Source: Naegleria gruberi (lineage: Eukaryota). Taken from it: 64,000 bases of DNA. Each line of letters opens with the position of its first letter. Position 1 is the first letter of the stretch. The stretch lies in assembly GCA_000004985.1 (NCBI GenBank), contig GG738889.1. The stretch is one strand, 5' to 3'. Under the pieces are notes generated by a model. It saw only the letters and a program-made list of their open reading frames with translations. It did not search any database and had not been told where the DNA came from. Positions 10,063 to 37,175 of the stretch are shown here, one piece after another. The translations under genes and the position numbers were made by a program.

Positions 10063-10071
10063 TTTGGCGCC
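10063..10071. promoter_or_regulatory. E2F-consensus half site TTTGGCGCC in 5' region of gene 10105
   Basis: GC-rich 9-mer in AT-rich context; member of the recurring TTTGGCGCCAAA family (see findings). Confidence 0.3.
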
Positions 10072-10104
10072 TTTCTGCTTTCGTGCATTTTTTGTAAAAA
10101 TAAC

Positions 10105-10836
10105 TTGGAGAGATGTTGTTTAAGAGTCAATAAAGACGATCAAAGCCTAAAAAAAAAAGTGACCACTCTCAACAATAGCATCCAGCACAGATACCTTATA
10201 CTATCATCATTGTTAATAATATTGATTGTTGATTTTGTGTTTATATCACTTTGTTTGTGGATGTTTATTCGTTCCTTTAATGAAACAGTTCACTACGGTG
10301 AAATGGTACAATTATTGAATATGAGAACGAAGGCTGTTGTAGAACAACGTGATTATCATTGTCAACATTCAAGTTATAGACAGGGTGGTGATGTATATTG
10401 TTCATCTTTAATAAGATTATTTAATTCCGAACCTTTTAATATACCAGATTCTTATTTTGGTAATTTGAATATTTTAAATCAAACTATATTAAGAAATACT
10501 AATGATTATCAATTATTAGAAAAAATACCAAATAATGGTGAATTTATTCATGTTTATATTCATGTCAATACAACTCCATTAACTTCACCTTTTATTTCAT
10601 TTTCAATTTATGAAAATTTAAAAGAATTACAAAATTTAAATGTTACTTCACCTGCCTTTTTAGGAGGATCTGTTGGTATTCTATGTATTGCAATTGCCAT
10701 AACTTTTTTAATTATTGCTATAATTATTGGATGGAGAATTAAATTAAAACAATTAAGAGATTTTCATTTAATTGATATTTTATTAATTAATTCAAATGGA
10801 ATACAAGTTAAAAAAGATGGTTCAATTAATGTTTAA
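10105..10836 (+). CDS. hypothetical membrane protein (two predicted TM helices); start codon unresolved
   Basis: ORF open from 10021; first ATG in frame only at 10261 (MFIRSF...), yet the upstream in-frame segment encodes a TM helix (YLILSSLLIILIVDFVFISLCLW), so a spliced 5' exon is likely. C-terminal TM GILCIAIAITFLIIAIIIGW. Confidence 0.3.
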   Translation: MERCCLRVNKDDQSLKKKVTTLNNSIQHRYLILSSLLIILIVDFVFISLCLWMFIRSFNETVHYGEMVQLLNMRTKAVVEQRDYHCQHSSYRQGGDVYCSSLIRLFNSEPFNIPDSYFGNLNILNQTILRNTNDYQLLEKIPNNGEFIHVYIHVNTTPLTSPFISFSIYENLKELQNLNVTSPAFLGGSVGILCIAIAITFLIIAIIIGWRIKLKQLRDFHLIDILLINSNGIQVKKDGSINV

Positions 10837-11359
10837 TTTTTATGCCCTATTATGTAGTTTATATTATTTATTATTATTTATTATTTATTTTACTATTTAT
10901 TTACTATTTATTTTTCTATTTTTTATATTTATTATTTATATTTAAATTTCAAATTGATAAAGTAATAATTGCAAGTCAATATTCCAATTTGAAATTAAAA
11001 AACAAACACACATAACATCAAATAAAATATTTTCAAGTTTTACTTCTCACTATCTAGATATCAATATTATGAACATTATCAATTCACAACCAAACTCCAC
11101 TGTGACCATCACAAATGAAGATTACAAAATGGTGGTGAAACGCCACAAAATCTTGAAGGAGTTTTTTCATCCAATCAAATTTTATCACAGATACAATCGC
11201 GTTTCTCTCTGTTTTTAAAAAAATCTCCAACAACAACAACACATCACCACCACAATTATTGTCGTTGCGCTATAAAGTTCATCATCTCATTATCATCATT
11301 GAATTCATCATCACACCAGTCAAAATATTTTCATCACTATCCAATATATTAGAAAAGAG

Positions 11360-15735: not shown

Positions 15736-15857
15736 ATTTTTTTACAATTACCATATAAACTACAGGGATGCATTAGTTTATGGGTTGATTAAATAGACAT
15801 CCTGCATAAAAATCAATTTTTAATTTACATGTTTTTTTGACAATCGTTAAGGTAAGA

Positions 15858-17207
15858 TTAATCTTCACCATAAACTGATTGAGATTGACCATCAGTCACA
15901 TCATGTTGAATTATTTGTCTATCAATACTCGCTGTGAATGCTGTCGAGCCATCATATGACCAGCATGCACTGGTTACCATCAATTCATGACCTCTCAATG
16001 TATTATGACAATGACCACTCAAATCATAAATTTTAGCCACACGTTTATCCAAAGAAACTAACATTCTCTGGTGGTATTCAGATATTGAAATATTATTGAC
16101 ACCTCCTGATTTGATTGGAATAGTCTTGACTGGTTTTGTCATGTTTCTATAATCAAAAATACGTAACTCTCCATTGTCTGTTCCTGTTATAATGAATCTA
16201 TCACTTGGAGTAAAGGCAACACAATTAACAGGATCTGAATGGGATTTGAGTGACGAAATTGGAGATTTTGAGTCTGAATGAGAGTCCCATAAAAATACAT
16301 TACCATCAGATGAAGCACAAGCAATTAATGATGACTGATAAGCACATGTAACATCATTAAGGTAGGCAGTTTCTACAGGTGAGTTTATCTTTTGAATTTC
16401 TCTTAATTCCAAATCTAACATTCTAACACAACCATCCCAACATGATGTAATAATATTATCACCACGATTGTGATGGGTGAAATCACAACTAGAAATGATA
16501 CCCTTATGTGATTCTGTATTTTTTACGTGTGGATTTCTGAGATAGGTTGGCCTATTTCTTATCATACCTTGAACACCCTCTAAAGTATTGGTTATGATTT
16601 TAACAATATATTCACAAAGTAATATCAATGTTGTTGTTGTTATATTGAACAAAGTAATAAAACATACCTTCAGTAATATAATATTTTTGTAACTCGTTAA
16701 GACTATCATCATTTTCACTATCTGTATTTACACCTTCATTTTGATAAGCTTTAAAATCAATATGACTATCTAATAAATCTTGTGTAAATAAATCATGTTG
16801 AGTTTCATTAAAAGATTCATCAAATTCAGTGCTTGTTTTGTGAATATTATCTATAGATGGTAATTTAGAATGTCTATTAAATGGTTTAAATCTATTACTA
16901 GAATCATCATCATATTCATTTTCTCCAACATATTGTCCACTTGTTGATTGATTTAAAGTGAGAGCATTATTTTGTTTTAAAGTATCAGCAAATTTCCATA
17001 AATGTACAGATTGATCACCTGAAACAGAACAAATCATTTGCGAAGTTGGATGAAATTTGATTCTATTTACAGCTCCACTATGTCCCTTATAAACAAGTAA
17101 TGGATTAAGATGAGAAAAATTAGATCCCCATAAACAACATGTTGAATCTGCTGAAGCTGTTGCAAACAGTGGTGTTGATGTGTCAATACTACAAACAGGT
17201 GACATTT
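15858..17207 (-). CDS. WD40-repeat protein, 2 exons
   Basis: complement(join(15858..16579,16668..17207)). ATG at 17207 (MSPVCSIDTSTPLFATASADSTCCLWG...). Donor AAG|GTATGT and acceptor TTTAG| remove an 88-nt intron and join ...KYYITE-E-GVQGMIRNRPTYL. Multiple WD signatures (GHSGAVNRIKFHP, SCWDGCVRMLD, ACASSDGNVFLWD, ITGTDNGELRIFD, FTASIDRQIIQHD). Confidence 0.6.
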
Positions 17208-17354
17208 TAATATCAAACACTGCATCTCTGTGAAATAAATATTTTCTAACAATTTTCTTATTATCTGGTTGTCTATCATTATTGAAATAATATTACAATG
17301 AGATAAATAACATCATATTGTTGATATATTAGTAGTCTACATATTGAAATAAAC

Positions 17355-17928
17355 CTACTTTGCTTGAATTGTCTTTTTAAATTGAGCATTGAATTGATCT
17401 TTAAGATCTTTCATTCTTTGTATTGTTGTTTTTGCTCCACTTTTTTGTTCTGGATTTGGTGTTTTAACAGGTGATTTTACATAGAGATTTTTAGATTCGG
17501 TAGAGAATGAATCCGATCGTTTTAAAGTTTCCACTTCTTTTACAGGTAATTGTTTTGATGATGGAGAGGCTTTTGATGGTGAGTTTTAATTGAATACAAA
17601 TTAAATTCTTCTTACATTTTGTCATATAATTTACTTCTTGTTTAATATATCCCATTAATTTTGTCATTTCCAAATGTTCCTCTTCTAAATCAATACTAGT
17701 ATTATTATTATTATTATTTTCAAGTCCATCCAATTGTTGAAAAAGTTTATCAATACGTTCATCCATTTCCAACAATAATTTATGAATAATATTTGGAGTC
17801 ATTTCTACGGGTGAAATAATAGAATCATTTCTTGTATTCGGATGATCCGATCCCAACGTATTATGATTCGATGGTTGATGTAATGATGATGAGCCTTGCA
17901 TTTGTTGCTGTTGATTAGTAATGCTCAT
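17355..17928 (-). CDS. hypothetical coiled-coil protein with one short intron
   Basis: ATG 17928 (MSITNQQQQMQGSSS...LEMDERIDKLFQQLDGLE...MGYIKQEVNYMTK), then a putative 46-nt intron (GTAAGA...CAAAAG), then SSPSSKQLPVKEVETLKRSDSF...IQRMKDLKDQFNAQFKKTIQAK, stop TAG at 17355-17357. Intron assignment tentative. Confidence 0.4.
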
Positions 17929-18456
17929 TTTTTGATGAAATGTTTGATGAGTTATTTCCACTCTAAGAAGGCAGCAACAAGGCTGGGATGAAAGTTGGAG
18001 AAGGCAGTTTAACTAAAAGGCTTTGTAATGTTCATTGTTTTGGTCTTCTGGTAAGGCTTGATTGATAATGGTTTACAACTCGAGAATTTATCAATTTTTA
18101 TGAAAATGACCAGTTAAGGAAAAACCATTAATTATCTCTTCAAACCTTTTTTAAGAATATTAACTACCGAACATGATGGTTGAACGGGTTCATTATTAAA
18201 CATCAATAGTGGTACTAAAATAAATATTACAAGGTGTTTCATTCTCTCTCATCAATTGATTTAATAACTTACTCCATCAATCTGTCATAAATAGTTTACT
18301 GTAATGCAACAACAGCTTAGAGCGAGGTTGAAAATTTTCTCTCAATAGTTGTTATTTTCATATAGGAGAGTATAACTGAATAATAACAAGCAAGGGCAAA
18401 AAAAACAAACAACATCAGCAACATTTTTATTCATCCCTCTCAACATCCCTTAAAAA

Positions 18457-21107
18457 ATGTTGGACAAATTCTTCTCTGAAATATTTCTCTCCTATTGTAG
18501 TGATACTCAGCAGCGACCCGAGAGAGAATTAGCCTTGAATTTAAAACAATTATTGGAAAAGAATTGTACTGAGGAAAAATTTATTTTAAGATCTCAAAGA
18601 ATTGGTATTGCAACAGCTAATAGTTTAGCAAGGTATTTTGCTCAAACTGTTAGTAAAGATAGCCCTCTTCATGTTTTGGATCTTCATGAAAATGTCATCC
18701 GAGACAAGGGCGTTCAAGCATTAATAGATGAATTAAAATCATTAAATACTGTAAAAATACTTGATTTAGGTAGTAATGATTTAGGATCAGAATCAGCCAT
18801 CCTTATTGCTGATTACCTTAAAAAACCTGATTGTAAAGTATGTATTAGTATATTATTTATATTATATCAATTATACTTATATCAATTTTCTTGAATATTA
18901 TAGTTAGAATCTTTGATACTAGGAAGTAGTGATTCAGACTTGTATGCAAATAAGATTGAAGCAGAAGGTGGTGTTTCAATTGCCGAGGCTTTATCATCAA
19001 ACTTTACTTTACATACTCTCGATTTTAATAGAAATTCTCAACTAGGAAGAAAAACTCAACAAGCATTCTTTGCTTTAGCAGATGCTTTTGATGAAAATAA
19101 GACAATTAGCTGTTTACGATTGGGACAAACTAATATGGGTTCTGTAGCTGCTGTCAATGTTATTCAATCATTGGAAGGTAATTCAAATTTGAGATATTTA
19201 GATTTACACGGAAATGATTTACCTGTAGATATTGCTGAAAGTCTTGGAAAATTAACATGCACCTGTAAAAACCTATCTGTTTTACTATTACAAAATAATT
19301 GCTTGAAACAAACAGGTGCAGAAATATTATGTAACTTCCTTAAACAAAATACTTTCATTACTGTACTTAATTTGGCTGGAAATGAAATTGGAAACGAAGG
19401 AGCATCATATGTTGCAGATTATCTGTCATGTAAACATACTTTAGTTTACTTGAATTTGAGTAAAAATCAAATAACTGAGGAAGGTATAATTACCATTGCA
19501 CAGGCTATTAATTGTCCTCAAAATACTTTACACTCTTTAAATTTGAGTAATAATAGAGTGGGAAATAGTGGTGCAAAGGCTTTAGCAAAATGTGTAGAAT
19601 ATGACCAATGTGGAATAGTTAACTTGGAATTGAATTCTTGTGGAATTGGTGATCAAGGAGCTGTATCCCTCTGTCTTTCTTTGACATGTAACACAACTCT
19701 GTTGTATATGAAAGTACACAACAATCATATTTCTGAAGGTAAGTTTTTTTCGAACCATTGCTGAATAATGTTGGAAATAGAGGCTGGAAAGGCAGTTCTA
19801 GACTTGCTGGAAAAAAATCATACACTCATGTCTTTTGATGTGAGGGGAAATCAATTAGACCACCCAACCTATTTGAAAATTAAGAAGGTTTTACAACGAA
19901 ATAAGACTGATAAAATGTTGATTGAACCAAATAAGTTAAAAAAGGAAGTAATTAGATTGAAATATGTACAAAAACTTCTTCAAGATGCATCAAAAGAACT
20001 CGAATATCAAGAAAATATTAGACTTGAAACTACTTCAAAAGTGGAAAGGATCAATGAACGAATTAAGGTAATAACAGAAGAAACAGACTCTTCTGCTTCA
20101 GATATAATTTCTCAAATTAAGGAGGAACAGAAAAGAATTGACTTTTTCCAAGATAGAATAACGGCAGTAATGGAGGATAAAAAGCAGAAGAATGCTAAAA
20201 ACGAGCAATTGATGAAAATTAAAATGGACAATCATCAAAAAGAATTGGATGGTAAGTTTATTGAATATTTCATGAATATTTACTTGTTGATAGCTAAAGC
20301 AGAGATTGAGGAAGAACTTAACGACGCCAGAGAAATGTTGCAAGACACAAGAAAAAGAAAAGAAATTGAAATCAAGTAAGTTACACTCACAATTATTGTT
20401 ATCAATATTTACAACTATTCAGAACATTGCAAGAAAAAATCAAATCAGTTAAACTCGCAGCTCAAGATGAAGAAAAGAAGAGAGAAAAACATTCAATGGA
20501 GATTGTAGATATTAGAGTTAGACTTCATGATATTGAAACTGAATTTATTAAACAGTTTGGAGAGGATCATCAAGAGAAAATTGATCAAATGTATATGGAA
20601 ATGAAGAAAGAAGATGAAGAAACGTTTGTTAGACTTGGATCTAAAACTAATCTTTTGGTGGATATGGAAGCTTTAAAGAAAGCTAAAAGTAGTACTACAC
20701 CAGGTACAAGTCACCCCTCAAAGGATTCTTCAAAAGATTCAGGAAAAACAACACCACATTCATCAACAGCAACAGCAACAACATCAACGACAGGTGTTGG
20801 AATTAGTGGAACTAGCTCAACAACAAGACCTACAACACCAAAAGAACCATCAAGTGGAAAGGATACACCAAAAACTCCAAAGGACACCAAGGATACAAGT
20901 ACAAAAACTGGACGATCTTCAACTATTGCAACAACTGGAAGAAGAAAGAGTCCACCTTCAGGAACCAGAAGAAATACTTCAACAACTCCTTCAACACCTC
21001 CACCAATTACTAATGTTGACACAAAGACACCTCCACCATCGAATAATCAAGGAAAGATGAGAGTTACCAATTTGAGTATATACGATTCTACACTGTCAAA
21101 TAAATAA
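18457..21107 (+). CDS. RNI-type leucine-rich-repeat protein with coiled-coil and S/T/P-rich tail (LRRC45-like architecture), 5 exons
   Basis: join(18457..18837,18904..19738,19781..20251,20294..20375,20423..21107); donors AAA|GTATGT, G|GTAAGT, G|GTAAGT, AA|GTAAGT; all acceptors AG with preserved phase. RI-like LRRs (LDLHENVIRDKGVQAL, LDLHGNDL, LNLAGNEIGNEGASYVADYL, LNLSKNQITEEGI, LNLSNNRVGNSGAKALA), then a heptad-rich segment, then a T/S/P tract. Confidence 0.65.
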
Positions 21108-21119
21108 CTTTTTTCAATT

Positions 21120-21725
21120 TTATTCATTGTTCATCATCATATTAATGTATTCCATGTAATTGATTTTTCCAGCATCCTCTGGATCAACTATTGATAATAG
21201 TTCAGTAGCCTTGTCGAGAGACATATTTTCACCATAGTGAACTAGAGCTTTCTCTATTAAATTTGATTTTACAAACCCTTGCCCAAGATCCTCTGTTTCA
21301 AATAATTTGAATGCTCTAATGAGTTCTTCTTTTGTATAGGTAGCATCGACAGTTCTTGACATGACTGTAACAAATTCACTAAAATCAATATCTCCTGAAC
21401 CATCCGCATCAACTTCCAACATCATTTCATCCAATTGTTCATCAGTAGGGTTCAATCCAAGCGTTTCCATGAGTGTTCTTAATTCTTCTCTTTGAATAGA
21501 ACCTATTACATTCCGAATCAAAAAGATTTTCAATAATTATTTCTTGTTATTACTACTAAATGACAATATTGAATCATACCTCCTCCATCTGTATCGACAA
21601 GATCAAATATTTCCTTAAATTCCTTCAATTCTTCTTCCGTTAATGCCTACCAGTAATTTTTGTATTCTGTTTCAAACCATCATCAAATCGGAACCTACCT
21701 TTCTTAATTGTCTCGACTTTTTCAT
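21120..21725 (-). CDS. calmodulin-like EF-hand protein, 3 exons
   Basis: complement(join(21120..21502,21580..21646,21699..21725)). MKKSRQLRK|ALTEEELKEFKEIFDLVDTDGG|GSIQREELRTLMETLGLNPTDEQLDEMMLEVDADGSGDIDFSEFV...DPEDAGKINYMEYINMMM. Introns 52 and 77 nt with GTAGGT and GTATGA donors. Collinear with calmodulin (LTEEQIAEFKEAF.LFDKDGDG.I...EL..VMRSLGQNPTE.ELQDMI.EVDADGNGTIDF.EF). Confidence 0.7.
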
Positions 21726-21758
21726 TTTGTATTGAGGTGGAGATTTATTTACAGTTTT

Positions 21759-23852
21759 TTATTTATTAAAGATTGGTTTTAAAATAGTTTCTGAGGCATC
21801 AAATGGTTTGAAAATAAGTCCGTTTGAGTTTAAGATTTCCTTTGGATTGTCATAGAATAGACTGAGAATTGATTGCCTTCCAACTTGTCTTGGAATATTA
21901 GTACAAAACTTTACACTGTATACATCCTTTACAAGTTTAGAAAGCAATCTTTCATGAGGTTTCTTATCTTTGGTTTTTCTGGAAGCTGTCAGTAATACTT
22001 TCCATTTTTCTAGGAATAACAGCCACAACTCATGGTCATCCATGATATGTGGAAACCATCTCAATTCACAACAATTGCTCTCAATCATTCTGTCATCCAA
22101 AACTCTTGTTGGGAATAGCTTCTTTGCAAGCATTTTTCTATAAGTTGTTACAATTTCACATCCATCAAGCTCCATAATGACATTTGGAGGACAATGGCAG
22201 AATTTTTGTTGACCTTTTGGTGAAGTAACAAGAGAAATTCTAAGGGATAAGTGAGGCTTTGGTACTCCTTTGAATAGCATTCCAAGCTTACCAACAACAT
22301 TTTGTCTGTTAAATATGATATCTTCCTGAGGAATATCAACTGGCTGAGTTAATGACCCTCCCATTAAATACAACTCATAATTCTTTTGGTTTTGATAATC
22401 ACCGTTCATTATTGAAAAGTTTGCATGTCCACAAGTTATTTCATGATATAGCCCCTTTTCACCTTCAACAACAATAACAAATTCAAACACCAATTGTGCA
22501 TTCACATCTTCTGTCATTGTTCTGACAAGAATTCGATTGTCTAACTCATTGGTAAACTGCCATTCATCTGTTTTGTTTGGGTTCCAAAATGCTGAAATTT
22601 GATAAATATTTGAAATGTGCTCCCCATTTGACATTAGGGAAACATACACTTTTCTTTCAAGAACCTTAACACTATCAGATGACAGAGGAATGCCTCTAGC
22701 AACATACATGCTGACCTTAAAGCTCGTCGCATAAATTGGAAGAATGTTTTTTGTGCAAGTGTCCAGTGTTAAATCTAAGAAATTGATTCCAGAACTGTTG
22801 ATGGTAGGAGTCACGAATTTGGAAGTTGAATATTTTCCTGATTGTAAAACTGAATGGAATGAAGATGTTCTAAAGGAAGATGGAAGTGTCTTAAAAATAT
22901 TAATATACATTAATGGTGCTGGCTCGAACAGTGATTTACATTTCTCGAATAAATTTCTATTTCTATACATTGCTTCAATAAACTCTATTGAACAGTTAAA
23001 GAAACTTGATTCTGTTTTACTCACCTCCAATATCAATAACTCCGTCTCCATTTTTATCAATATTAGTTAATATCTCAGTTATTACTTCCACATCTTGTTT
23101 TGGATTCATTCTTCCATTTGTTGGAATTGATTCTAAAGCTTCCTTAAACTCGTCAAATGAAAGATATCCGTCTCCATTTTTATCAAGTTTATCAAAAAAT
23201 ACTTCTATTGCCTTTCGTTTCTTATTGTCATTTTCGAAAAGAACGTGATTAACCTTTTTCTTCATTAAGGTTGAAAACTGATTCATATCCAATAAACCAT
23301 CCTTTGATCCTGCCAAATGGAAGAGTTCATTGATATATTTTGGTGATGGATCTAACCCATAAGACCGAATGGCAACAGCTAATTCATTCTTTGAGATTAG
23401 CTCATCCCCGTCAGTATCTATCATCTTGAATGCTTTTTTCATTTCCTCAACAAAAATTATATCCGATCGATTGTAGTTGGCTGATGTTGTTGATGGAGTT
23501 GTTGTTTGTTTGCTTGCTATTGATGAAATTGCAATTGACACACTTTTAGGGGATGATTTTTTAGATGAAGCCACTGAATCTGTAGTAAATTGAGTACTTC
23601 CGCTGTACAATGATGGAGATGGTGAATGAAGAATGCCTTTAACTGGTGATTGTGTTTGTTGTTGTTGTTGATGAGCAGCAAGCAAATCCCTTGCAGACTG
23701 TACTTGTTTTGGTTGCTGATTTTTAATAACAACATTTTGAGTTGGTTGTACTTTTTGAACCACCTCTTCCTCATTCAATCTTTCCTCATCTCTGTAGGAG
23801 CTTGTTGTCTCCTCAGTTTCATAATAAGTTGAAGATGCAGTCCCTACACTCA
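21759..23852 (-). CDS. four-EF-hand protein fused to a large C-terminal beta-rich (C2-like?) domain, 2 exons
   Basis: complement(join(21759..22984,23035..23852)). ATG 23852 (MSVGTASS...). EF loops DTDGDELISKNE, (KDGLLDMNQF), DKNGDGYLSFDE, DKNGDGVIDIG|E. A 50-nt intron (G|GTGAGT...CAATAG|) splits the last loop, so codon GAG (E12) is restored and the exit helix FIEAMYRNRNLFEK follows in the frame of the long downstream ORF. The ORF-track ORFs 23017..23907 and 21759..23060 are the two halves of this one gene. Confidence 0.6.
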
Positions 23853-23895
23853 TTTTTTTAAAGCAGTTTTTGGTGATTTGTAGTTGGTGGGAATA

Positions 23896-23910
23896 TTTTT
23901 GGCGCAAATT
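23896..23910. promoter_or_regulatory. E2F-like element TTTTTGGCGCAAATT, 44 bp upstream of the EF-hand/C2-like gene ATG (23852) and 214 bp upstream of MPG (divergent promoter)
   Basis: TTTGGCGC core = TTTSSCGC consensus. Confidence 0.35.
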
Positions 23911-24123
23911 CGTTCTTACTTACAGTGGGAAATATGAAGCTCAATGACAATCAGCAGGGTTTTTGATAAACGAAAATGACAAGTTTTAAAGTGAGAAGGT
24001 GTGTTGGTCATGTTTTGTAACAAGCAGAATAGTTGAATTGCAACTTCCAGTTGCCAAAGGCCACAAAATATTCTTCAAATTCAGAGAAATCGCCGTTAAA
24101 TAATCACCTACAATTACAAAAAA

Positions 24124-25134: not shown

Positions 25135-25140
25135 ACCTAT

Positions 25141-25701
25141 TTATTTATGTAATTTAGATTCAATTAATTTTTGCAAATAAACATATTTGTCAGTCACACC
25201 TTCCCAATTAACTGAGAATGATTGTTGTAATTTTGAAGAGAATTCTTCACTATGGTACACTTTAAGGAAGCTCTTTTGCATAATGGCTAATACATCCTTG
25301 TGCATTACTGCCATCACAACTTGATATAACATAAAGATCAATGCTCCATGAACAATAAAGAACATAATCTTGGTAATAAATAAACTATTTTCATCCATCC
25401 AAACCACAACTATTATCATTAAGGAAAAGATAAAAACCAAAATCATAATTGCCGATGTACCAGTTATAATGAAATCTTCGCTTAAATCTTGAGAAAATTG
25501 ATTTTTAAATGAAATAAACCATATTGTTAGAGTGACAATAAGGAAAGATAACATTAGATGATGCTTGGCCATGAAGGATGTTTTCCCTGACGAACAGGCA
25601 AATCCACAAGTTAACATAAAAGAGAGCCAATAAATTAAACTAGGGGTAATAAATAATAAAACAATTCCTAACAACACATTAATCTCGACCAAGGATGACA
25701 T
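25141..25701 (-). CDS. hypothetical 4-TM membrane protein, 186 aa
   Basis: Uninterrupted ORF with four hydrophobic helices (VLLGIVLLFITPSLIYWLSFML; LMLSFLIVTLTIWFISF; AIMILVFIFSLMIIVVVW; IMFFIVHGALIFMLYQVVMAV). Confidence 0.45.
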   Translation of the reverse strand: MSSLVEINVLLGIVLLFITPSLIYWLSFMLTCGFACSSGKTSFMAKHHLMLSFLIVTLTIWFISFKNQFSQDLSEDFIITGTSAIMILVFIFSLMIIVVVWMDENSLFITKIMFFIVHGALIFMLYQVVMAVMHKDVLAIMQKSFLKVYHSEEFSSKLQQSFSVNWEGVTDKYVYLQKLIESKLHK

Positions 25702-25718
25702 TTTTTAATGAATGAAAA

Positions 25719-25732
25719 TTAGGCGCCAAAAT
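25719..25732. promoter_or_regulatory. E2F-like element TTAGGCGCCAAAAT, about 20 bp upstream of ATG 25701 (minus-strand gene)
   Basis: GCGCCAAA = reverse complement of TTTGGCGC. Confidence 0.35.
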
Positions 25733-26427
25733 ATTATCTTCCCTTAAAAGTTCCTCTTTAGTGAAAGCCTTATTTCATCACTAATACAAAACAATCAATA
25801 AATTGCATTTCAAAACCTCAGATTATTTGTCTTTTTATGGACATTGTTAAAAGATATTTATTAGTGATTTTTATCGAATCGTTAAAATCACCGATAATAC
25901 ATGAACAATAAAACAATTTGAATGTAACTCTATTGGTCATATATTCACTACATCATCCAATGTTAATAGACTGTCATTTTACCATCATAAAGTCATACTT
26001 TATTGTAAATACAGTATTAATAAATACATTAAGGGAATATAAAGGACAATGATGGTGTCTTCATCTCTCAATAAGAAGAACAGCCATACCTTTTTTAGAA
26101 ACGTAATGCTCCTTATTTGCCCTTCCAAAAGGCCAGAGATATTAAATTGCTCAATAAACTATTGATGGTGAAGCGACACAAACACATGCTGCAACAACTC
26201 ACCGAACACACCAGGTAAGCGAAGAAGAAGGCGGAAACTTCACCAGCCTTCCAATTCTTTTTTATTCCCAGAGGTGAAGACCTCTCTATTAGGCTCTCCA
26301 CACACAAAAAAATTGAAACAACAAGAAACTTGGGAGATTGAAGAGACAAAACCTATCTCGGAATACTTCCCATTCACTTTCCTATCACCATTCATATTAT
26401 TTATTTAACCCTACTAGTTAGTTCGAG

Positions 26428-27104
26428 ATGGTAAGTAGAAACTTCTTGTTGTTCAAAACAATCTTAATAATCATATGATAGATACAAGCATTAGGCCATC
26501 AAAAATTGTCCAATCACTTTTGCAATTCACTTAAAGAAAGTTTTAGAAGGGAGGAAATCCATCAACGATCCTGGATGGAAAAAGAAGAAAAATTGAACCG
26601 TTCTTTGTCCCCTCCTAAAACTTGTAGAAATTATTCAACCACTTCCTCAAATAGTAAAACAAGGTCATCCTCAACAAAACATAGCCACAACATTTCATCC
26701 TTCGATAATTCATTGTTGTCTTCCAAGAAGAGTATTGTTAGTAATTCTTCTTTGAAGAGTAGTAACAGCACTTGGAATAAGACTATCTCTGATTTAGTTG
26801 ATACTGCTGAAATTGGATGGGGAGTAAAAAAACAAGAAAATGAAGAAGAAGAATTTTCATTGGATCTTGGACAATTAACTTCTAAATATAATAAGAAGAG
26901 TATCATACAAAGCGAGTTTTATGATAATTCTCATTTTGGTATGTATTAGTATTTTCCATAATTTTTATTTAACTTTTATTGTTTTTAGAGGGATTCCTTA
27001 CACATAGACGAGCTCCACCTTCTCTCTGCACATCACTTAAATCAAATAACCCATCGAGAAATCACAAAAAGACAAAAAAGAGAAAGGATTTAATTTTTGA
27101 TTAA
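26428..27104 (+). CDS. hypothetical S-rich protein; model with ATG-only first exon
   Basis: join(26428..26430,26482..26938,26989..27104). ATG|GTAAGT at 26428-26436; 51-nt intron ending GATAG|; exon 2 in the frame of ORF 26506..26949 (MIQALGHQKLSNHFCNSLKESFRREE...). Second intron G|GTATGT...TTTTAG| (50 nt); terminal exon EGFLTHRRAPPSLCTSLKSNNPSRNHKKTKKRKDLIFD*. Speculative. Confidence 0.3.
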
Positions 27105-27247
27105 AAAGGTTTTGAATAAAATTGTGTAAATAATATTCTTCCAGATTGATTATTTTGATAACTTGTAATTGATTGGAACAATTTTAGTGAAATTGATTTG
27201 TAAAATCTTATCCAATTTAATTTTAATAAAACAATTTTTCAAAAAAA

Positions 27248-28116
27248 TGATAAAACGGATTTCCAGGCTAAAACACACTCCCGATGTGGTTAACATTAGG
27301 AAGAGTTTCATCAACATTTCATTCCGAAACAAAAGATATTATCTTGGATTGGATATATCATCAGCCAAGACTGGTTATTCAATTTTAAGTGATGAAGGTG
27401 CTGCTCTTGAATGTGGACTTTTTGACACACAACACATCTTTGACTCTCAAGAATTTGGATTATTCATGAAGGAAAATTTTAGGAATATTGCACAACGATA
27501 TAAATCAGATGAACAGGATGAGTGGATTGTTGGAGCTGAAGAATTTTTATTGAAATTCAATGACAAATCAACAGCAAATACTATTGCCAAGTTGTCAAAT
27601 TGTAACACTTTGGCATGTTATGAGTGTAGAAATGAATTACCTGTTAAAAAATTATTTAAATTCAATGTTAATGCAGCTAGATCATTCTTTGATATTAAAA
27701 GAGAGGAGAAAAAGAGTGAAAAAAAGTCCAAACTAAATGTGTTTAATACTTTAAAACATTTACTCCCAAAGGATTATGAAATTAGATATGGAAGAGCTGG
27801 AAATTTACATGAATCTAACTTTGATGTTACTGATTCATTATTGATTTCCTTGTACACATTTGTTAAATATAATGCTTGCGAAAACACTTTGAACTTTTTG
27901 AATCTTTTATCGAGCCATAGAGACAAAACTATTAGGAAAGAACTTATTGAATTATCATTATCTTTGAATCCACTAATTACTCAAGATTTGGAAGATGACG
28001 ATAAAATACTTTACCTTTTGGACAACTATTCATCTGCAAAAGATCACTTATTCATTCTATTTAAAAAGAATTTTCAGAAAGAATATGGACCTCATTTTAA
28101 TATAAATATTAATTAA
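27248..28116 (+). CDS. RNase-H-fold protein resembling mitochondrial Holliday-junction resolvase (Ydc2/CCE1-like)
   Basis: ATG 27248. N-terminal basic presequence-like stretch, then YYLGLDISSAKTGYSIL (RuvC/Ydc2-type first beta-strand with catalytic Asp). Family call from the motif only. Confidence 0.35.
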
Positions 28117-31100
28117 TTTTGACAGAACGGACATTTGCCATTGTTTTTCAGCATTTCAAACTCAAAATCTTCTTGTTGGAAGAAGAGATTACAATGATTA
28201 CATTGCACAATTGGGAAGTTTGGTATAATACATTTGAAAAAGTGTCTCTTGATAAGAGGATTCTTCCAATCTACAATAAATACATCTTCTCTTCTGAAAG
28301 ATTTCAACATTTCTCTGTTAACCTTTACAATCTTACCATCAATATTCAATAAAGCCTTACTAAACAAGTCTGTGAGAGTCATGTCTTCGTAAGGTTCCTC
28401 AGAATCTTGATCAAGACGAAGGGATTGAACATTTGCACTGCTTTTTTGCTCTCTCCATTTATCTCCTCCCTTTTTTCCTTGCATGCTTGGAGGTGTTTGG
28501 TTTATCAGCTTGATAGCCTCTTCTTCTTCAATTCCTTCTTCCAATTCAAACTCGACAAGTGGTAGAATGTGATATGAGAGAGGTGATCTCTGGAATGTAT
28601 GACTACAGTTAACGCAGCAATCAACACCTTTTTCATTCAGGAATGGATTGGATGCTGAACATCTAAAACAAATTGGAATACATTCCTCATTATTCCTCAT
28701 TGGCTTACTGTGAATGGAAATACTTGACAACTCAATTTCATCCATAATTGGTTTTGGAAGCCTCAAATGTTGAATATTTTGATACACTTCTCTAGCCAAT
28801 TTGTAGTTTTCTAACGATAAACCGAGTTTAGCCATCGTCACTGTAACTGTTATCCTAGAAATAGATTTAGGCAAGTTAGAAACATCTAAATTGTTATAAA
28901 GGAATAAGCAAGCATTGAACAGATGTCTGGTATCGCAAGAGTTGAATGGAAGTTCGGAGAATTTGTGTACAATGTCATAAGCAAAATAAATTTGACTGAG
29001 TTGATAATACTTTTCAAACTTTTTGATTTCCTGCCAGACAGATTCTGTTATTTGGGATTCATTCTTTGTTGTATGCATCAACTCATTGGCAACTTTCCAC
29101 AAGTAGTATGATGCGTCCTTGAATCTGTTTTCTTCAATAGCGTTTTGAGCAAGTTCTTCAATGATTTTCATTGCCTTTTCTGGTTTGTTAGCCTTTCTGA
29201 AAGCCACTTGAGCTTCATCAAATTTGTCTTCAATTGCTAAATTTTCAGCATAAGGAAGATATACTTCTGCTGAGAATTCTGGGTTCTTTTCAAGAATTTC
29301 GAAAGCTTGTTCCCACTTTTGAGCACTAACAAACAATTTGATAAGGGATGGGAAGTCACCAATCTTTTGATAGGCTTCCTTGGCGGCATCATACATCTTG
29401 TTCTTTCTAAAGTACTCAGCACACATAGCAACACCTTTGGTTTCGTTGCTGTTCAAGTTTCTGCATGTCTCTTGTAGCATATCAAACCATTTGTTATCGC
29501 CCATGATTTGAATAGCTTTCTCATAGTTACCTGCAGCAGCATACAACTCTGCAGCAGATCTATGATCAGTGTCTTCCTCAGCTGTTCTAGCTTGACGCAG
29601 AATCATATCTGTTAGGTTGATATTATCGTAGGTAATGGCAAGATCTTTTGCTTCTTTCCATTTTCTCAAATCGCACAACATATCCATAGCCATATCTGCT
29701 CTGCCTCCCTTAACAAACATTTTAGATGCTTCATCAAATTTACCTTGGTAAGCATGTATTTCAGCAACGAATAGATCTCTGTTGAATTGATTTTGCTTAA
29801 TGAGCTTTTCATATTTGTCAATCAAAGAAATAAATTTGGTGTCTTCGATTCTATTGAAACATTTTCTGGCAATATCTAAATTGACTCCCAAAAGAGCTTG
29901 AACACCCAAAAATCTCCAATCGGTTTCTGTCACTCCAAGACAAGCAATTTTGTATCCTTCAGTAAAATCAGCCTTTTCGATATATCTGTACAAGGTTGCT
30001 GATTGAGGAACATCTACAGTACTCATAGATACTTGATGTAAACAGAACACCTTTGAACCAATAAATCCAACTACTAATCCTTGAAGTTTGTGAGAATTGA
30101 CTGGGAAGTTTTCTGTCTTAATATTCAAAATACCAGATCCAGAATAACACAACATATTTTCATGTTCTGAATTCCAAGCAACACCTTCAGCATTCTTTTC
30201 TTGGTAAACGTATTTCTTATCCTTTAAATCATAAACCATCAAATCATTATTTTGGTCTACCAAAGCTAATCTTCTTCTAGACATATTCAAATCCAAACTT
30301 TTGATGGAATAGTCATGCTTCAGAAGTTGAACAGGGAAAGGGTTATCAACGAAAATCTTGAGGATAGATCCGTTAGCCAGACCAACTAGGATTGCTTCTT
30401 TGAATGGTGGACCACCAATTACTTTGATGTATTTAATTGGAGCTTCCAAATCCCAAACTCTTTGGAGGTTTCCTTTGAAATCGTAAAGATGCAACTCTTT
30501 TTCATGACAGAATATCAAATTTCCGTAAGTAACAACAAGCATGTTGCATTCGATATCTTTCACAATTTTCTCGACCAATCTGTATTGCAATTCTTCATCT
30601 CCTTCTTCACCTTCGTTCTCATTCTTATTTTGGGTTAATTCAATGACATGGATCTTGTTCTTCATTTGAATTGCCATTCTGTCTTTATAAATAGCTATCT
30701 TTTTAACGTAATCTTTGCATCTTATGGTTACTTTCTTATCGTTTACTAAGTCTTGAACAACTACATCTGTCATGGAGTCTCTAAAAGCATACAAATTGCC
30801 ATATAAACTATGTACAGTAATAAAATCCAATTTTTGAACTTGAAGCAAGCCATTATTTGTACCAATAGCCTTTCATAATAATCAGTATCAAAATTATTAC
30901 CAATTACTTACAACAAAGTTTTGGTTTGGTTTTTGAGCTACACTCCAAATCCATCCTTGATGTTTTGAAACAGGAACTAATTGAACACCATCCTTATTCC
31001 ATAATGATACTTCACCAGAAGTTCCACCAATACATAAATATTCTCCATTTGAAAAATAGGAAACTGTACAAGGATCAAATCCTAATTTTTGATCCTTAAT

Positions 31101-31841
31101 AATTTGCTTTCCACTCAAGTGATAAAATGAAATTGTTTGATCCCAACAACCAACAGCAAGAATATCATATTGTTCATCTCTTGAAGGGTTAAATGAAATT
31201 GTCCAAATAGGATCTGATCTAGCAAAGCTTACTAATTCTTTTCCTTCTCTATTATAAATTCTAACACTTCCGTCAAAAAATCCAAGAGCCATGTGCTGGC
31301 CATCACTTGTCCAACTGCAACACAGAATTTTGGAATTAACTTTAACTTTCTTTACTTCCTTTTCATCTTGGGACCACAAACCAAAATCTGTACAAGCACA
31401 ACTCAGCAATTGATTAGTTGTTGGATTGAATTCTAAACATTGAATAGAATCATTATGAGTAAATTTGAGTTTTGGTTCTCCAAGGTGAGTCCATAAAATT
31501 ACACTATTGTCAGCACTAATGATGTTTCAGTAATCATGATGAAGTTGTTAAACATACCCTCCCGAAGCAAATGTTTTACCATCTTTAACAAAAGAAAGAC
31601 AATATACATTATCCGTGTGTCCTCTACATTGTTTGATAAACTCTCCGGTAGTGGAATTGTACATCAAAACGTGTCTATAACTTGCACAAACAAGCACAGT
31701 ACCATCAGGTGAATAACAAACAGCATACACAGCTGTTGGTGCTCCACTTTTATCAGTCTATCCGCATCACCATCATATCAGTATACAACAAATTACTACA
31801 AAACCTACATAACTATCACCCCACAGTGTAGATGTCTTCAT
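28113..31841 (-). CDS. IFT122: intraflagellar transport protein 122 (IFT-A subunit), 4 exons, 1197 aa
   Basis: complement(join(28113..30869,30912..31515,31558..31757,31809..31841)). MKTSTLWGDSY|TDKSGAPTAVYAVCYSPDGT... (human [25 protein letters not shown]); FASGG|(G)ADNSVILW (human FASGSADKSVIIW); ...QNFV|AIGTNNGLLQ; LYAFRDSMTDVVVQDL (human RYAYRDSMTDVIVQHL); YIKVIGGPP; C-terminal Cys-rich CIPICFRCS..CCVNC...CPFCQ. Introns 51, 42 and 42 nt; donors GTAGGT, GTATGT, GTAAGT; phases consistent. Confidence 0.9.
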
Positions 31842-31868
31842 TTTTTTAAGGTTGTGTTTGTAGTTAAT

Positions 31869-31880
31869 TTTGGCGCCAAA
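31869..31880. promoter_or_regulatory. perfect palindrome TTTGGCGCCAAA, 28 bp upstream of IFT122 ATG (31841); divergent with gene 32051
   Basis: Exact 12-bp palindrome matching the classical E2F site. Confidence 0.4.
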
Positions 31881-32050
31881 CCAATTATTACTTCTACAAT
31901 GTTGAAAAATTGTATGCCATTAGAAAGTTTCTCATTTAGTGTCACTTAAATCGTGGTGGGAAAACATTGTATACAATTATAATATTGCTTTTTAATGATA
32001 AAGCAGAGAGAACTTGCAAACACATTCCGATCAACTTTCAATCATAAAAA

Positions 32051-32823: not shown

Positions 32824-32824
32824 A

Positions 32825-33980
<1,156 letters not shown>

Positions 33981-34152
33981 TTTTTATTCTTTCAATTTTT
34001 ATTTTCTTCAAAGAATATGATGAATAATTTCATTTTCAATTATTGTTGAATGATGGTTGTTGGAGAGAATCTTTTGACAATGGATGATGCGAATCTTTGC
34101 TTTTTATCATGATTTCAATAAGTTTATTCAATAATTTTATAGAGATGTTGTT

Positions 34153-35256: not shown

Positions 35257-35565
35257 GATGTTGCACTATTAATATATTGCTGGAGAGAAGTTGATCCTTT
35301 TTTTCGGTTTGAATTGTCTACTTATGATACTCATCGAAATGCATTTCCAAGCTTGCTTCAATTTCCATGGAAAAAGTCTAGACTAGGAACGGAAATATGG
35401 ATTTTCCAACTTGCTGTTTTTTTGAAGTAAAGAGATGTTTTCATAATGGAAGATTCACTCCTCATAACATTAAATACATTCTCCTTAAGTCCTCCTAAGG
35501 CAATTTTATTCTTTTAAATACCAAGTCAACATGTTTGTAATTTTATTAATTCTCAATTATTTAAA

Positions 35566-37122
35566 ATGTCTTCAAATCTTCCATGTGCAGAGATTATTTT
35601 GGAGGCTTGCAAAAAATTGAGTCACATTCTTGGTTCAAGCTTTGGTCCACTTGCTTTTCATAAATTAATTATTAATTATCATCACCATGTATTTTCGGAT
35701 GTAATTTATTCAAATGATGGAGCAACAATTATGGATTCACTTCCGATTGTTAATCCTATCGGAAGAATTTTATGTGATTTATCAAAATCTCAGGAGGAAC
35801 AAGCTGGAGATGGTACAACTGGTGTTGTTTTATTGTGTTGTGAATTGGTTAGAAATTGCTTGGAGGAATTACATTTAAAACAATTAATACCTTTGGATGT
35901 GATTTGCAGTAATTTATCTACTTTGAAAAATGTATGCAAAGAGACTTTTCTGACTATAATGCAGAGAGACAGGGTCATGATGCAACAATTTGTTACAAAT
36001 AATTGTGAAATTATTAATTTTATATGTAAAAATTCATTACAATCTAAGGAATTGAGATTTCATATTGAACATTTTAAAAGCATTTTAACTGAAGGATTTT
36101 CTAATGGAAATTCCATTCCTAAACATACTAAATTTCATATTATTGAGGGTGGCCAATTGAATGACAGTTTTGGATTTAACGGAATTTTTATGAATATTTC
36201 ACAATCTTCATTCTCAAAGAGATACGCCTATTCTAGTAGTTATTTGGATAAATTATCCAAGTGTAGATCAATATTATTGCTAAAGAGGCAAAATTTAGAA
36301 ATGAATCAAAAAGAAAAGCTATTTTGGAGAAGTTTATTTGAATTGGGAACCAGTAGTAGTGGAATAATAATTTTGATGGAGGGAGCATTCCCTTTTCATG
36401 ATATATTTTATAGTTCAGATTCTAATGTGCTGATATTTGATAAATTAAGCTCGAAACATTTGCAAAATATATCACATTCTCTAAATCTACCTTCAATTAT
36501 CCCAGTTGGATCAACCACCACAGTCGAGAATGAGGATCTCTATATTTTCGAGTCTTCTCCTAATTTTTCAATTTTTCAAAACGAGATTTTCATAACTATT
36601 CCTAATGTTTGTGACTTTTTTAATATTATTATTCGAGGGCCTTCCAATACTATTAATGAGGAATCCAAGAGGTCAATTAAGGATGCCTTCTATGTAATTA
36701 AAGGGTTTATCAATGAAAACAACTTTTTCAGTGCTTCCAATACATCAGAATTATGTGGAGGAGGATGTCACATTGAAATGAGTATATGGAGAGATGTCAG
36801 CAATTCCTCAGTACTGTCCAAAGGAATTTCAACAATATTTGCTGATAGCTTCTTATCAATAGTGAGATTTTTATTGCACTCGAGTGGATTCAAACATGAT
36901 TCAGAAATGATAATTTTACGATTGGCAAGTGAATATTCTAAAAATCCAAACTCTTTCTTTGGTATTGATCTTACCAATCAAGATTCACAAACTCCAATAA
37001 TTTCCAACATTATAGAAGCTCATATCATTGAAAATCTCAGAGTCAAGAAAATAATGATCGAGTTGGCCATTGAAACAGCCATAAATCTACTCAGAATCAA
37101 ATCAATTGATTTTACCAATTAA
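35566..37122 (+). CDS. divergent group-II chaperonin-like protein (BBS-type: MKKS/BBS10/BBS12-like), 518 aa
   Basis: Chaperonin ATP-binding signature GDGTTGVVLL preceded by the equatorial-domain pattern (DVIYSNDGATIMDSLPIVNPIGRIL.DLSKSQEEQAGDGTT). The rest is highly diverged with low-complexity inserts, as in BBS chaperonin-like proteins rather than canonical CCT subunits. Confidence 0.5.
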   Translation: MSSNLPCAEIILEACKKLSHILGSSFGPLAFHKLIINYHHHVFSDVIYSNDGATIMDSLPIVNPIGRILCDLSKSQEEQAGDGTTGVVLLCCELVRNCLEELHLKQLIPLDVICSNLSTLKNVCKETFLTIMQRDRVMMQQFVTNNCEIINFICKNSLQSKELRFHIEHFKSILTEGFSNGNSIPKHTKFHIIEGGQLNDSFGFNGIFMNISQSSFSKRYAYSSSYLDKLSKCRSILLLKRQNLEMNQKEKLFWRSLFELGTSSSGIIILMEGAFPFHDIFYSSDSNVLIFDKLSSKHLQNISHSLNLPSIIPVGSTTTVENEDLYIFESSPNFSIFQNEIFITIPNVCDFFNIIIRGPSNTINEESKRSIKDAFYVIKGFINENNFFSASNTSELCGGGCHIEMSIWRDVSNSSVLSKGISTIFADSFLSIVRFLLHSSGFKHDSEMIILRLASEYSKNPNSFFGIDLTNQDSQTPIISNIIEAHIIENLRVKKIMIELAIETAINLLRIKSIDFTN

Positions 37123-37163
37123 ACAACAAGCTTTAAAATTGCTTCTAACAAAGGCAAGAAGTG

Positions 37164-37175
37164 TTTGGCGCCAAA
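37164..37175. promoter_or_regulatory. perfect palindrome TTTGGCGCCAAA, 69 bp upstream of the TRF-like gene ATG (37244)
   Basis: Exact 12-bp palindrome; lies between the BBS-chaperonin stop (37122) and the next start. Confidence 0.4.

Follow-up and report, generated by a model that had tools for sequence, protein, structure and literature searches.

A GC-rich palindromic promoter element, a candidate E2F-type site, upstream of flagellar and lineage-specific genes in Naegleria gruberi

The consensus of E2F sites is GCGSSAAA (PMC4862756), and the HT-SELEX motif of human E2F1 is TTTGGCGCCAAA (PMC5449588), the same sequence as the Naegleria box described in this work. In vertebrate multiciliogenesis, E2F4/E2F5-DP1 acts with Multicilin/GEMC1 to drive ciliogenesis in non-dividing cells (review PMC12183034). 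In animals and choanoflagellates, part of the ciliome promoters contain the RFX X-box, i.e., GTNRCC N0-3 RGYAAC (PMC10530576). RFX has been reported to be absent from Naegleria (PMC12183034, PMC10530576), and FOXJ1 is likewise absent; according to a 2025 review, the regulators of the Naegleria cilia genes are yet to be found (PMC12183034). The literature has yet to explain how ciliated protists without RFX and FOXJ1 activate their cilia genes, which number in the hundreds. Naegleria makes its basal bodies and flagella de novo in about an hour, and transcription rises massively in the process. We have found no earlier account of the element described below in the literature on Naegleria E2F, GGCGCC or promoter motifs, and the preprint version of Kennard et al. 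(2025) contains no motif analysis.

The 64-kb stretch of N. gruberi DNA analysed here, hereafter the window, has a G+C content of about 31%, and not below 30% as a preliminary description of the sequence had stated. That description had pointed to five copies, full or partial, of a GC-rich palindrome resembling an E2F site. All five are present at their positions, and those at 31869-31880 and 37164-37175 are exact TTTGGCGCCAAA, but it omitted a box at 58633, a weak variant at 5558 and 8160, and matches at 63201 and 50828. CpG is strongly depleted in the window (581 observed vs 1452 expected), and thus dinucleotide shuffles are the right null model. The rough expectation that such a motif should be rarer than seen was borne out by 100 of these shuffles: TTTGGCGCCAAA has two exact matches vs 0.00 expected, and GGCGCC has four vs 0.19, all of them at sites of the preliminary description. 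The consensus TTTSSCGC has eight matches in six loci vs 0.77 expected (0.73 under a first-order Markov model), a number reached in none of the 100 shuffles. The looser TTSSCGS has 12 matches in nine loci vs 4.45, and five of these nine loci fall in the 100 bp preceding an ORF ATG, a zone that makes up 7.0% of the window (binomial p=1.7e-4).

The boxes are enriched 17-70 bp upstream of start codons, distances being measured to ATGs and not to TSSs. A strict TTTSSCGC/GCGSSAAA match (GCGCCAAA, GCGGGAAA, GCGCGAAA), for which the expectation in a 60-bp window is 7e-4, is found in five of the seven independent promoter-side boxes of the window and in 10 boxes at orthologous promoters, the remainder being one base off. 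The sequences flanking the boxes are unrelated from gene to gene, so the boxes are not part of a dispersed repeat, the origin that the preliminary description had named as an argument against itself. Rfam and tRNA scans of the window gave no matches. The pattern is not due to chance, and its sequence and position support the view that the palindrome is a cis-element of E2F type, probably promoter-proximal.

The perfect palindrome TTTGGCGCCAAA at 31869..31880 (this and the other promoter boxes are given without strand, unless indicated) lies 27 bp upstream of the ATG (31841) of the IFT122 gene (28113..31841, minus strand). This gene, which has several exons, encodes a component of intraflagellar transport complex A with Pfam IFT122 domains; its product starts with the first exon MKTSTLWGDSY and shares 85% identity with N. 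fowleri IFT122. The plus-strand ORF across from this box starts at 32051, 170 bp away, unless it has short upstream exons. The second perfect TTTGGCGCCAAA (37164..37175) follows the stop of a chaperonin-like gene by 42 bp and precedes by 68 bp the ATG (37244) of a gene (37244..38557, plus strand) whose 437-aa product has a single Myb/SANT domain at its C-terminus (Pfam Myb_DNA-binding, 4.8e-6). This protein had been called TRF-like; the Myb domain is there, but the resemblance to the TRF1/TRF2 Myb domains of the PDB is weak (E=0.012). The box TTAGGCGCCAAA (TTTGGCGCCTAA on the gene strand; 25719..25730) is separated by 17 bp from the downstream ATG 25701, where a gene (25141-25701, minus strand) for a multi-pass membrane protein of 186 aa begins.

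A half-site box, TTTGGCGCAAAT (ATTTGCGCCAAA on the gene strand), is found at 23898..23909, 44 bp upstream of ATG 23853 of a gene (21759..23853, minus strand) encoding an EF-hand plus C2-like protein (Pfam EF-hand); the gene consists of two ORFs, probably with one intron between them. The promoter had been considered to be shared with a divergent gene; the intergenic region is indeed divergent, but the plus-strand partner starts at 24124, 214 bp away, unless it has short upstream exons. This partner had been named as an MPG glycosylase, a name that finds no backing, since the MPG-like ORF has no Pfam match even at E<=5 and no PDB match; the same holds for the membrane protein and for the 10105 ORF discussed below. 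The EF-hand/C2 protein has five homologues, all from Naegleria or relatives, one of them being a 100% identical N. gruberi protein, suggesting that, among the homologues found, the gene is confined to Heterolobosea. The AlphaFold model of its C-terminal half, built on a 6-sequence alignment, is poor (pLDDT 49.6), and a Foldseek search with this low-confidence model returned matches of a predicted beta-sandwich to C2 domains that would indicate a generic sandwich only. The same Pfam and PDB searches gave no assignable function to this C-terminal half, nor to the coiled-coil protein that follows.

The box CTTCCCGCCAAA at 58633..58644, a canonical GGCGGGAA-type E2F site, lies 44 bp upstream of ATG 58689, which opens a gene for a 332-aa coiled-coil protein with only faint Pfam coiled-coil matches (Cnn_1N, Rootletin). 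The target of the box TTTGGCGCCTTT (10063..10074), which bears the half-site TTTGGCGC as does the 23898 box, is uncertain: it had been assigned to gene 10105, but only a 6-codon uORF begins at the close-by ATG 10112, and ORF 10105-10836 has no in-frame ATG before 10261, 186 bp from the box. The claim that the sites always lie 20-75 bp upstream of an ATG is corrected by these distances. The weak variant AAGCGCCCAACG (GCGCCCAAC) occurs twice on the minus strand, at 5558..5569, where it abuts ATG 5556 or lies 28 bp upstream of ATG 5529, and at 8160..8171; each site adjoins the start of one of two genes in a 2.6-kb tandem duplication with 94-100% identity (copies 1 and 2, respectively), and therefore they count as one event. 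A further TTTGGCGC (63201..63208, plus strand), which falls in protein kinase coding sequence (62490-63446, minus strand), is probably not functional, and TTGGCGGGA at 50828 is located in an ORF-poor stretch.

A second short element accompanies some of the boxes. ACTACAA is found on the minus strand at 31858..31864, 4 bp downstream of the IFT122 box and some 16 bp before the ATG, and at 23878..23884, 13 bp downstream of the EF-hand/C2 box and some 24 bp before the ATG. CTACAA within 60 bp of the ATG is present in 4 of 11 box promoters vs 1 of 53 others (p=0.0024), and in this subset the spacing from box to CTACAA(A) is 3-13 bp. When metagenomes were scanned for the composite TTGGCGCCAAA-N(1-8)-CTACAA-N(3-25)-AAAATG, eight unrelated contigs of 37-50% G+C were returned; none had a long ORF of the heterolobosean type, and L006 was not recovered, so the scan is uninformative.

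The ciliary part of the regulon postulated in the preliminary description is strengthened by the comparison with related amoebae, in which boxes are found at the IFT122 and DRC2 promoters of several species. An E2F-type box is present upstream of IFT122 in four species, of DRC2 in four and of the EF-hand/C2 gene in three, 17-50 bp upstream in all these cases. The IFT122 boxes all lie 25-45 bp from the ATG; N. gruberi has TTTGGCGCCAAA, L002 ATTGGCGGGAAAG, L010 TTTTCGCGC and Willaertia a degenerate GATGGCGCCCACC. At DRC2, N. lovaniensis and L006 share TTTGGCGCCAAA, N. fowleri has TTGCGCGCCAAAA and Willaertia ATTGGCGCCAAAC; this gene was found blind, as the sole other box-bearing gene of a 23.7-kb Willaertia locus. 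The EF-hand/C2 promoter has GCGCCAAA in N. gruberi and two boxes each in N. lovaniensis (GCGCGAAA and CCGCCAAA) and N. fowleri (GCGCCAAA and CCGCCAAA). Thus, strict E2F-consensus variants substitute for each other at orthologous promoters.

TTSSCGS is missing from the 150 bp upstream of all 26 annotated non-targeted neighbour genes of Willaertia and N. lovaniensis but is present there in both flagellar gene families examined (Fisher p=0.0026), a sample that comprises the two annotated families IFT122 and DRC2, the former picked because it carried the box. In Acrasis kona, the DRC2 promoter has no box and IFT122 has a degenerate one only. In the N. gruberi window, the divergent chaperonin-like gene 35566, possibly of BBS type, lacks a box, and the membrane, Myb, coiled-coil and duplicated genes are targets without an assigned function. 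The box frequency of about 7 in 40 genes in the window vs 0 in 26 in the other loci counts against the explanation that we favour below.

The preliminary description had proposed a search for E2F/DP homologues, and such factors exist: the sequences given by Medina et al. (2016; PMC4862756) comprise one E2F, one DP, one DEL (E2F7/8-like) and one RB of N. gruberi. The factors match the Pfam families E2F_TDP (1.3e-28, 1.8e-18 and 1.1e-30), E2F_CC-MB and DP. The closest solved structures to N. gruberi E2F are E2F4 (PDB 1cf7; E=2.6e-25) for the DNA-binding domain and E2F4 and E2F5 for the CC-MB domain. The recognition helix is the same as in human E2F4 (1cf7), with a stretch of 24 residues identical, and therefore N. 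gruberi E2F would be expected to bind the boxes. The boxes equal the E2F1 SELEX motif (PMC5449588) and their variants vary as GCGSSAAA allows (PMC4862756), some of them differing by one base. Taken together, the E2F identity of the boxes appears well supported, if indirectly.

We consider it rather probable that the boxes are E2F/DP or DEL sites of a regulon that includes flagellar genes. The proximal-promoter boxes would be occupied by an E2F/DP heterodimer or by the two-domain DEL protein. Each site is built from a GCG core, two flanking S bases and a run of A/T (GCGSSAAA), and in many cases this unit is duplicated to the palindrome TTTGGCGCCAAA, which would offer a half-site to each winged-helix domain. 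The genes marked in this way include flagellar structural genes (IFT122, and DRC2 in related species) together with lineage-specific ones, a subset having a bipartite promoter in which CTACAA(A) follows the box after 3-13 bp. We infer that E2F-family proteins occupy the boxes and that the genes are switched in the amoeba-to-flagellate differentiation, which might proceed through E2F/DP activation or through release of RB- or DEL-mediated repression. The retention of the box at two flagellar promoters of related amoebae makes E2F a candidate for the switch that activates the flagellum genes in N. gruberi. More tentatively, in Naegleria and its relatives the ancestral E2F/DP (or DEL)-RB module might directly control the flagellar differentiation regulon, with structural cilia genes such as IFT122 and DRC2, through the E2F box plus CTACAA(A), as RFX/FOXJ1 do in animals.

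The strongest alternative, which we nevertheless regard as unlikely, is that another, possibly lineage-specific factor binds the GGCGCC-type palindrome, which would serve as the promoter element of the flagellar genes, perhaps together with the CTACAA site, and that E2F is uninvolved. One specific palindrome, TTGGCGCCAA, is the commonest form, a second element, CTACAA, accompanies the box, and both GGCGCCCAC of Willaertia IFT122 and GCGCCCAAC of the duplicated genes fit E2F less well; but the orthologous GCGGGAAA and GCGCGAAA break the GGCGCC palindrome and remain exact E2F consensus, and the identity of the recognition helix to human E2F4 also speaks for E2F itself. An NFI site would require an N5 spacer and was discarded. 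Distinctly improbable in our opinion is a classical cell-cycle E2F regulon that marks G1/S, DNA-repair and telomere genes, with the flagellar genes incidental or minor. Cell-cycle promoters typically carry E2F sites close to the start, N. gruberi encodes E2F/DP/RB, the ancestral G1/S module, and a weakly TRF-like Myb protein is among the targets. However, no box-bearing gene recognisable as a replication or cell-cycle gene was seen in the approximately 190 kb examined, and MCM, PCNA, RNR, CDC6 and cyclins are absent from the window and from the 10 loci compared with it. The DNA-repair and telomere regulon of the preliminary description is not supported: the MPG identity is unsupported, the Myb protein is only weakly TRF-like, and the only clear DNA-repair genes of the sample, Mre11 in the window and the RING-BRCT (BRCA1/BARD1-like) gene beside DRC2 in N. 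lovaniensis, lack a box. Among the targets, IFT122 and DRC2 are those kept from species to species, and their products are required in non-dividing flagellates only; the flagellate tubulins, which are published guide genes for flagellar components, were induced in differentiation and not in a mitosis time course (PMC10802493).

It is very improbable that the element acts in the 5' leader of the mRNA as a self-complementary signal for translation control or for the co-localisation of flagellar mRNAs. The boxes are just 17-70 nt from the ATG, and some differentiation-specific Naegleria mRNAs are co-localised (PMC2139841); but half-sites and non-palindromic variants (GCGGGAAA, CCGCCAAA) are common, the orientation flips between orthologues, the sense strand being TTTCGCGC in L010 and GCGGGAAA in L002, and a perfect 12-nt palindrome leaves no loop for an RNA hairpin. 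Chance, a compositional artefact or a repeat has almost no probability left: two of the weak sites are copies in a tandem duplication and two matches lie within coding sequence, but the counts far exceed the shuffle and Markov expectations, the sites cluster beside start codons with unrelated flanks, and the box is kept at orthologous promoters in up to four species.

If E2F controls the flagellar genes, this would suggest that the link of E2F4/5 to ciliogenesis in vertebrate multiciliated cells is ancient and not a vertebrate invention, and the result would bear on how E2F-RB couples cell-cycle exit to differentiation. With a defined cis-element and an obvious candidate factor, the question of the flagellar switch would become directly testable. 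If the MCM, PCNA, RNR or cyclin genes bear the same box, a differentiation-specific role would need an additional layer, and if the flagellar link fails, these would still be the first mapped E2F-type sites in a heterolobosean, a useful but ordinary result.

Among the known systems, the RFX X-box resembles the Naegleria box in being a short palindrome near the start of ciliary genes; it was rejected because the sequence does not fit GTNRCC N0-3 RGYAAC and RFX is reported missing from Naegleria. The CDE/CHR element bound by DREAM (E2F4-DP-p130-MuvB) is a bipartite repressor site made of a GC-rich E2F-like element and a nearby second element. A GC-rich box followed a few bases on by a second short element is also seen in the Naegleria subset, but CDE/CHR was discarded as well, since the recurrent partner is CTACAA and not TTYGAA about 4 nt downstream, TTTGAA following the 58633 box only. 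The E2F/DP sites of animals and plants (TTTSSCGC/GCGSSAAA; TTTGGCGCCAAA and TTTCGCGCCAAA palindromes) share with the Naegleria boxes the consensus, including the S-S variation and the T/A runs, the palindromic double sites and, probably, the position near the starts of TATA-less promoters, and the cognate E2F, DP, E2F7/8-like and RB proteins with the RRXYD recognition helix are also present in N. gruberi. They differ in that the Naegleria boxes, which are sequence-predicted sites, were seen on IFT-A, N-DRC and lineage-specific genes and not on replication or cell-cycle genes, and in that a subset is accompanied by CTACAA. The vertebrate E2F4/5 module is comparable in that E2F4 is the closest solved structure to the single N. 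gruberi E2F. However, the vertebrate complex acts mainly on centriole-amplification genes and on FOXJ1/RFX, which then activate the structural cilia genes, whereas in Naegleria, where RFX and FOXJ1 are absent, the putative sites lie directly on the structural genes IFT122 and DRC2.

The window consists of Naegleria gruberi nuclear DNA with densely packed genes and a G+C content of about 31%, which falls to 12-22% within the first 8 kb; its ORF 21759-23060 (minus strand) matches a predicted N. gruberi protein at 100% identity. In this DNA, the short GC-rich palindrome TTTGGCGCCAAA, hereafter the box, occurs at 31869 and 37164, for 0.00 copies expected from dinucleotide shuffles; a copy with one mismatch lies at 25719, and the half-site TTTGGCGC at 10063 and 23898. 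There are eight matches to the E2F consensus TTTSSCGC, at six loci, against 0.77 expected, a count reached in none of 100 shuffles (a first-order Markov model predicts 0.73), and the four occurrences of GGCGCC in 64 kb are restricted to the sites listed in the preliminary description. Thus, these sites exist beyond chance, as proposed there. The looser pattern TTSSCGS marks nine loci, five of them in the 100-bp stretches that precede ORF start codons, which make up 7.0% of the sequence (binomial p = 1.7e-4).

The claim that an ATG always follows at 20-75 bp holds for IFT122 (27 bp from the box end to ATG 31841, minus strand), the EF-hand/C2 gene (44 bp to ATG 23853, minus strand) and the Myb gene (68 bp to ATG 37244), but not for the membrane protein gene (17 bp to ATG 25701, minus strand) nor for the 10063 box, after which the ATG opens a 6-codon upstream ORF (uORF) and, in the long ORF, an in-frame ATG first occurs 186 bp away. 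The start-codon assignments are supported by the AAAA that precedes the ATG in 36 of the 64 genes examined. The ATGs at 10112, 23934 and 31899, previously taken as gene starts, open short plus-strand ORFs of 6-16 codons; these start 20-40 bp downstream of three boxes and could represent either uORFs or very small first exons. The "ORFs" 1390-2562 and 1421-2584 are artefacts, both of which run through a 1,128-N gap (1427-2554) in the 1-2600 region, where G+C is 11.8% across the first 2 kb.

Other sites had been overlooked. A canonical GGCGGGAA-type E2F site, CTTCCCGCCAAA, is found at 58633, with the start of a coiled-coil protein gene 44 bp downstream, and the weaker variant GCGCCCAAC lies directly upstream of the genes at 5556 and 8158. 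The two GCGCCCAAC sites count only once, since they sit in a 2.6-kb tandem duplication whose copies are 94-100% identical. The duplicated units (5140-7370 and 7742-9981) hold two genes each, with N runs at 5069, 5090-5139, 7378 and 7396-7445, and could reflect a true recent event or an assembly artefact. Further matches are one in coding sequence at 63201 and TTGGCGGGA at 50828, within a 3-kb stretch lacking any ORF above 70 aa (48276-51441) between a CYFIP/Sra1-like gene and a gene for a large EGF/REJ-domain membrane protein; a long promoter, a heavily spliced gene or a non-coding transcript might account for this stretch.

CpG is strongly depleted in the window (581 observed, 1452 expected; GpC 1239), which fits cytosine methylation, and Naegleria is known for a TET homologue. 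The boxes contain CpG, yet they persist against this depletion. In animals, methylation of the central CpG blocks E2F binding.

The proposed E2F-type nature of the element is borne out by its sequence: the palindrome coincides with the motif obtained for human E2F1 by HT-SELEX (PMC5449588), and the box variants fit the family consensus GCGSSAAA (PMC4862756), some of them with one base off. N. gruberi also has the corresponding factors, namely one E2F, one DP, one DEL (E2F7/8-like, with two DNA-binding domains) and one RB (Medina et al., 2016, PMC4862756). The E2F-family sequences match Pfam E2F_TDP, E2F_CC-MB and DP. In crystal structure 1cf7, an E2F4-DP2-DNA complex, the E2F4 chain is matched by the DNA-binding domain of the E2F with E = 2.6e-25. 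The two proteins share an identical 24-residue recognition helix, and therefore the same DNA specificity would be expected for the N. gruberi protein.

Orthologous promoters keep the box. N. gruberi IFT122 shares 85% identity with its N. fowleri counterpart and 75% with the Willaertia magna one; its promoter carries TTTGGCGCCAAA, and the orthologous promoters carry GATGGCGCCCACC in W. magna (29 bp from the ATG), ATTGGCGGGAAAG in a metagenomic relative (L002, 74% amino acid identity; about 25 bp) and TTTTCGCGC in a distant relative (L010, 51% identity; about 45 bp). The sole other box-bearing gene of the Willaertia locus (ATTGGCGCCAAAC) led us to DRC2 (CCDC65), a subunit of the nexin-dynein regulatory complex, whose promoter has TTTGGCGCCAAA in N. 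lovaniensis (the only such site in 21.8 kb) and in locus L006, and TTGCGCGCCAAAA in N. fowleri. The EF-hand/C2 promoter has one box in N. gruberi (GCGCCAAA) and two, 17 bp apart, in N. lovaniensis (L007 9955-9981, CCGCCAAA and GCGCGAAA) and N. fowleri (L009 9101-9127, CCGCCAAA and GCGCCAAA). Acrasis kona lacks a box upstream of DRC2 and shows only a degenerate one upstream of IFT122. A strict match is expected by chance in a given 60-bp interval with a probability of 7e-4. The sites are not frozen copies, since they drift among GCGCCAAA, GCGGGAAA and GCGCGAAA in orthologous promoters; this drift corresponds exactly to the latitude left by the E2F consensus, and it is our strongest argument. 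A dispersed repeat is ruled out because the sequence flanking the boxes is unrelated from gene to gene.

A second element, (A)CTACAA(A), follows some of the boxes after 3-13 bp on the gene strand, 7-25 bp ahead of the ATG. It is carried by IFT122 (31858-31864, minus strand) and the EF-hand/C2 gene (23878-23884, minus strand) of N. gruberi, by IFT122 of Willaertia (L001 9990) and L002 (about 296), and by DRC2 of N. lovaniensis (L004 9988), N. fowleri (L005 495) and L006 (about 3901). Among 64 start codons, CTACAA is present within 60 bp of the ATG in 4 of 11 box promoters versus 1 of 53 others (p = 0.0024), the exception being the gene divergent from the EF-hand/C2 gene. This rarity outside box promoters rejects a general initiator; CTACAA may mark the start site in box promoters, or it may be bound by a partner factor. 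The box-less DRC2 promoter of Acrasis retains AACTACAG at the CTACAA position.

The preliminary description proposed a regulon of DNA-repair, telomere and ciliary genes. The boxes of IFT122 and DRC2 support the ciliary part, but the DNA-repair and telomere part is not supported, since Mre11 in the window has no box, the "MPG glycosylase" identity finds no support in Pfam or PDB, and the Myb protein is only weakly TRF-like. TTSSCGS was absent from the 150 bp upstream of all 26 non-targeted neighbour genes in the annotated Willaertia and N. lovaniensis loci, including a RING-BRCT (BRCA1/BARD1-like) gene, CAND1, KH, dynactin-5 (DCTN5), Arf-type GTPases and several EF-hand proteins. Compared with the two flagellar families this gives a Fisher p = 0.0026, although IFT122 was chosen for its box and orthologues are non-independent. 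About 7 of 40 window genes bear a box against none of these 26, a difference that may reflect either local clustering of co-regulated genes in the window or sampling noise. The roughly 190 kb of sequence examined contain no MCM, PCNA, RNR or cyclin gene.

Concerning the remaining genes, the EF-hand/C2 family is confined to Heterolobosea, its C2-like sandwich appearing in a low-confidence model. Window 15800-31900, L007 and L009 share one gene order, WD40, LRR, EF-hand, EF-hand/C2, MPG-like, and in L009 (N. fowleri) IFT122 is also near the EF-hand/C2 cluster. Of these three species, N. gruberi alone has the box-bearing 186-aa membrane protein gene (25141-25730), two unrelated genes taking its place in the others. 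The divergent chaperonin-like gene 35566-37122 (plus strand) matches every CCT subunit and the thermosomes at the same distance (E about 1e-20), may encode a BBS6/10/12-type chaperonin, and has no E2F-type box upstream. Two genes from DRC2, the W. magna locus encodes a protein with a Pfam XAP5 domain (L001 22072-23046, minus strand); Naegleria is said to lack XAP5, a cilia-gene regulator of Chlamydomonas (2025 review, PMC12183034).

Binding of the boxes by the E2F family is the best-supported reading and a likely one; that they are the E2F-family sites of a regulon including flagellar genes is somewhat less assured, though still probable. Beyond the observed sequence, excess, position and conservation of the boxes and the presence of the factors, we envisage that an E2F/DP heterodimer, or the two-domain DEL, would bind the box, the palindrome offering a half-site to each of the two winged-helix domains. 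Occupancy would shift as amoebae exit the cell cycle to differentiate, through RB release or replacement of a repressor, and the flagellar-apparatus genes would be turned on. E2F as the flagellar-differentiation switch of Naegleria is a tentative proposal that we hold to be rather doubtful; if true, it would be of high interest.

In full-text literature searches, we found neither a description of the box element nor a report that E2F controls Naegleria differentiation, and reviews state that Naegleria lacks RFX and FOXJ1 and that the factors governing its cilia genes have yet to be identified (PMC12183034, PMC10530576). As a set of E2F sites, the boxes are of a known kind. They find their nearest parallel in the E2F4/5-DP1-Multicilin module of vertebrate multiciliated cells (PMC12183034), in which, however, E2F targets centriole genes together with FOXJ1/RFX and not IFT or N-DRC genes directly. 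The conserved placing of the boxes on flagellar structural genes, with CTACAA as partner, is a variant worth following.
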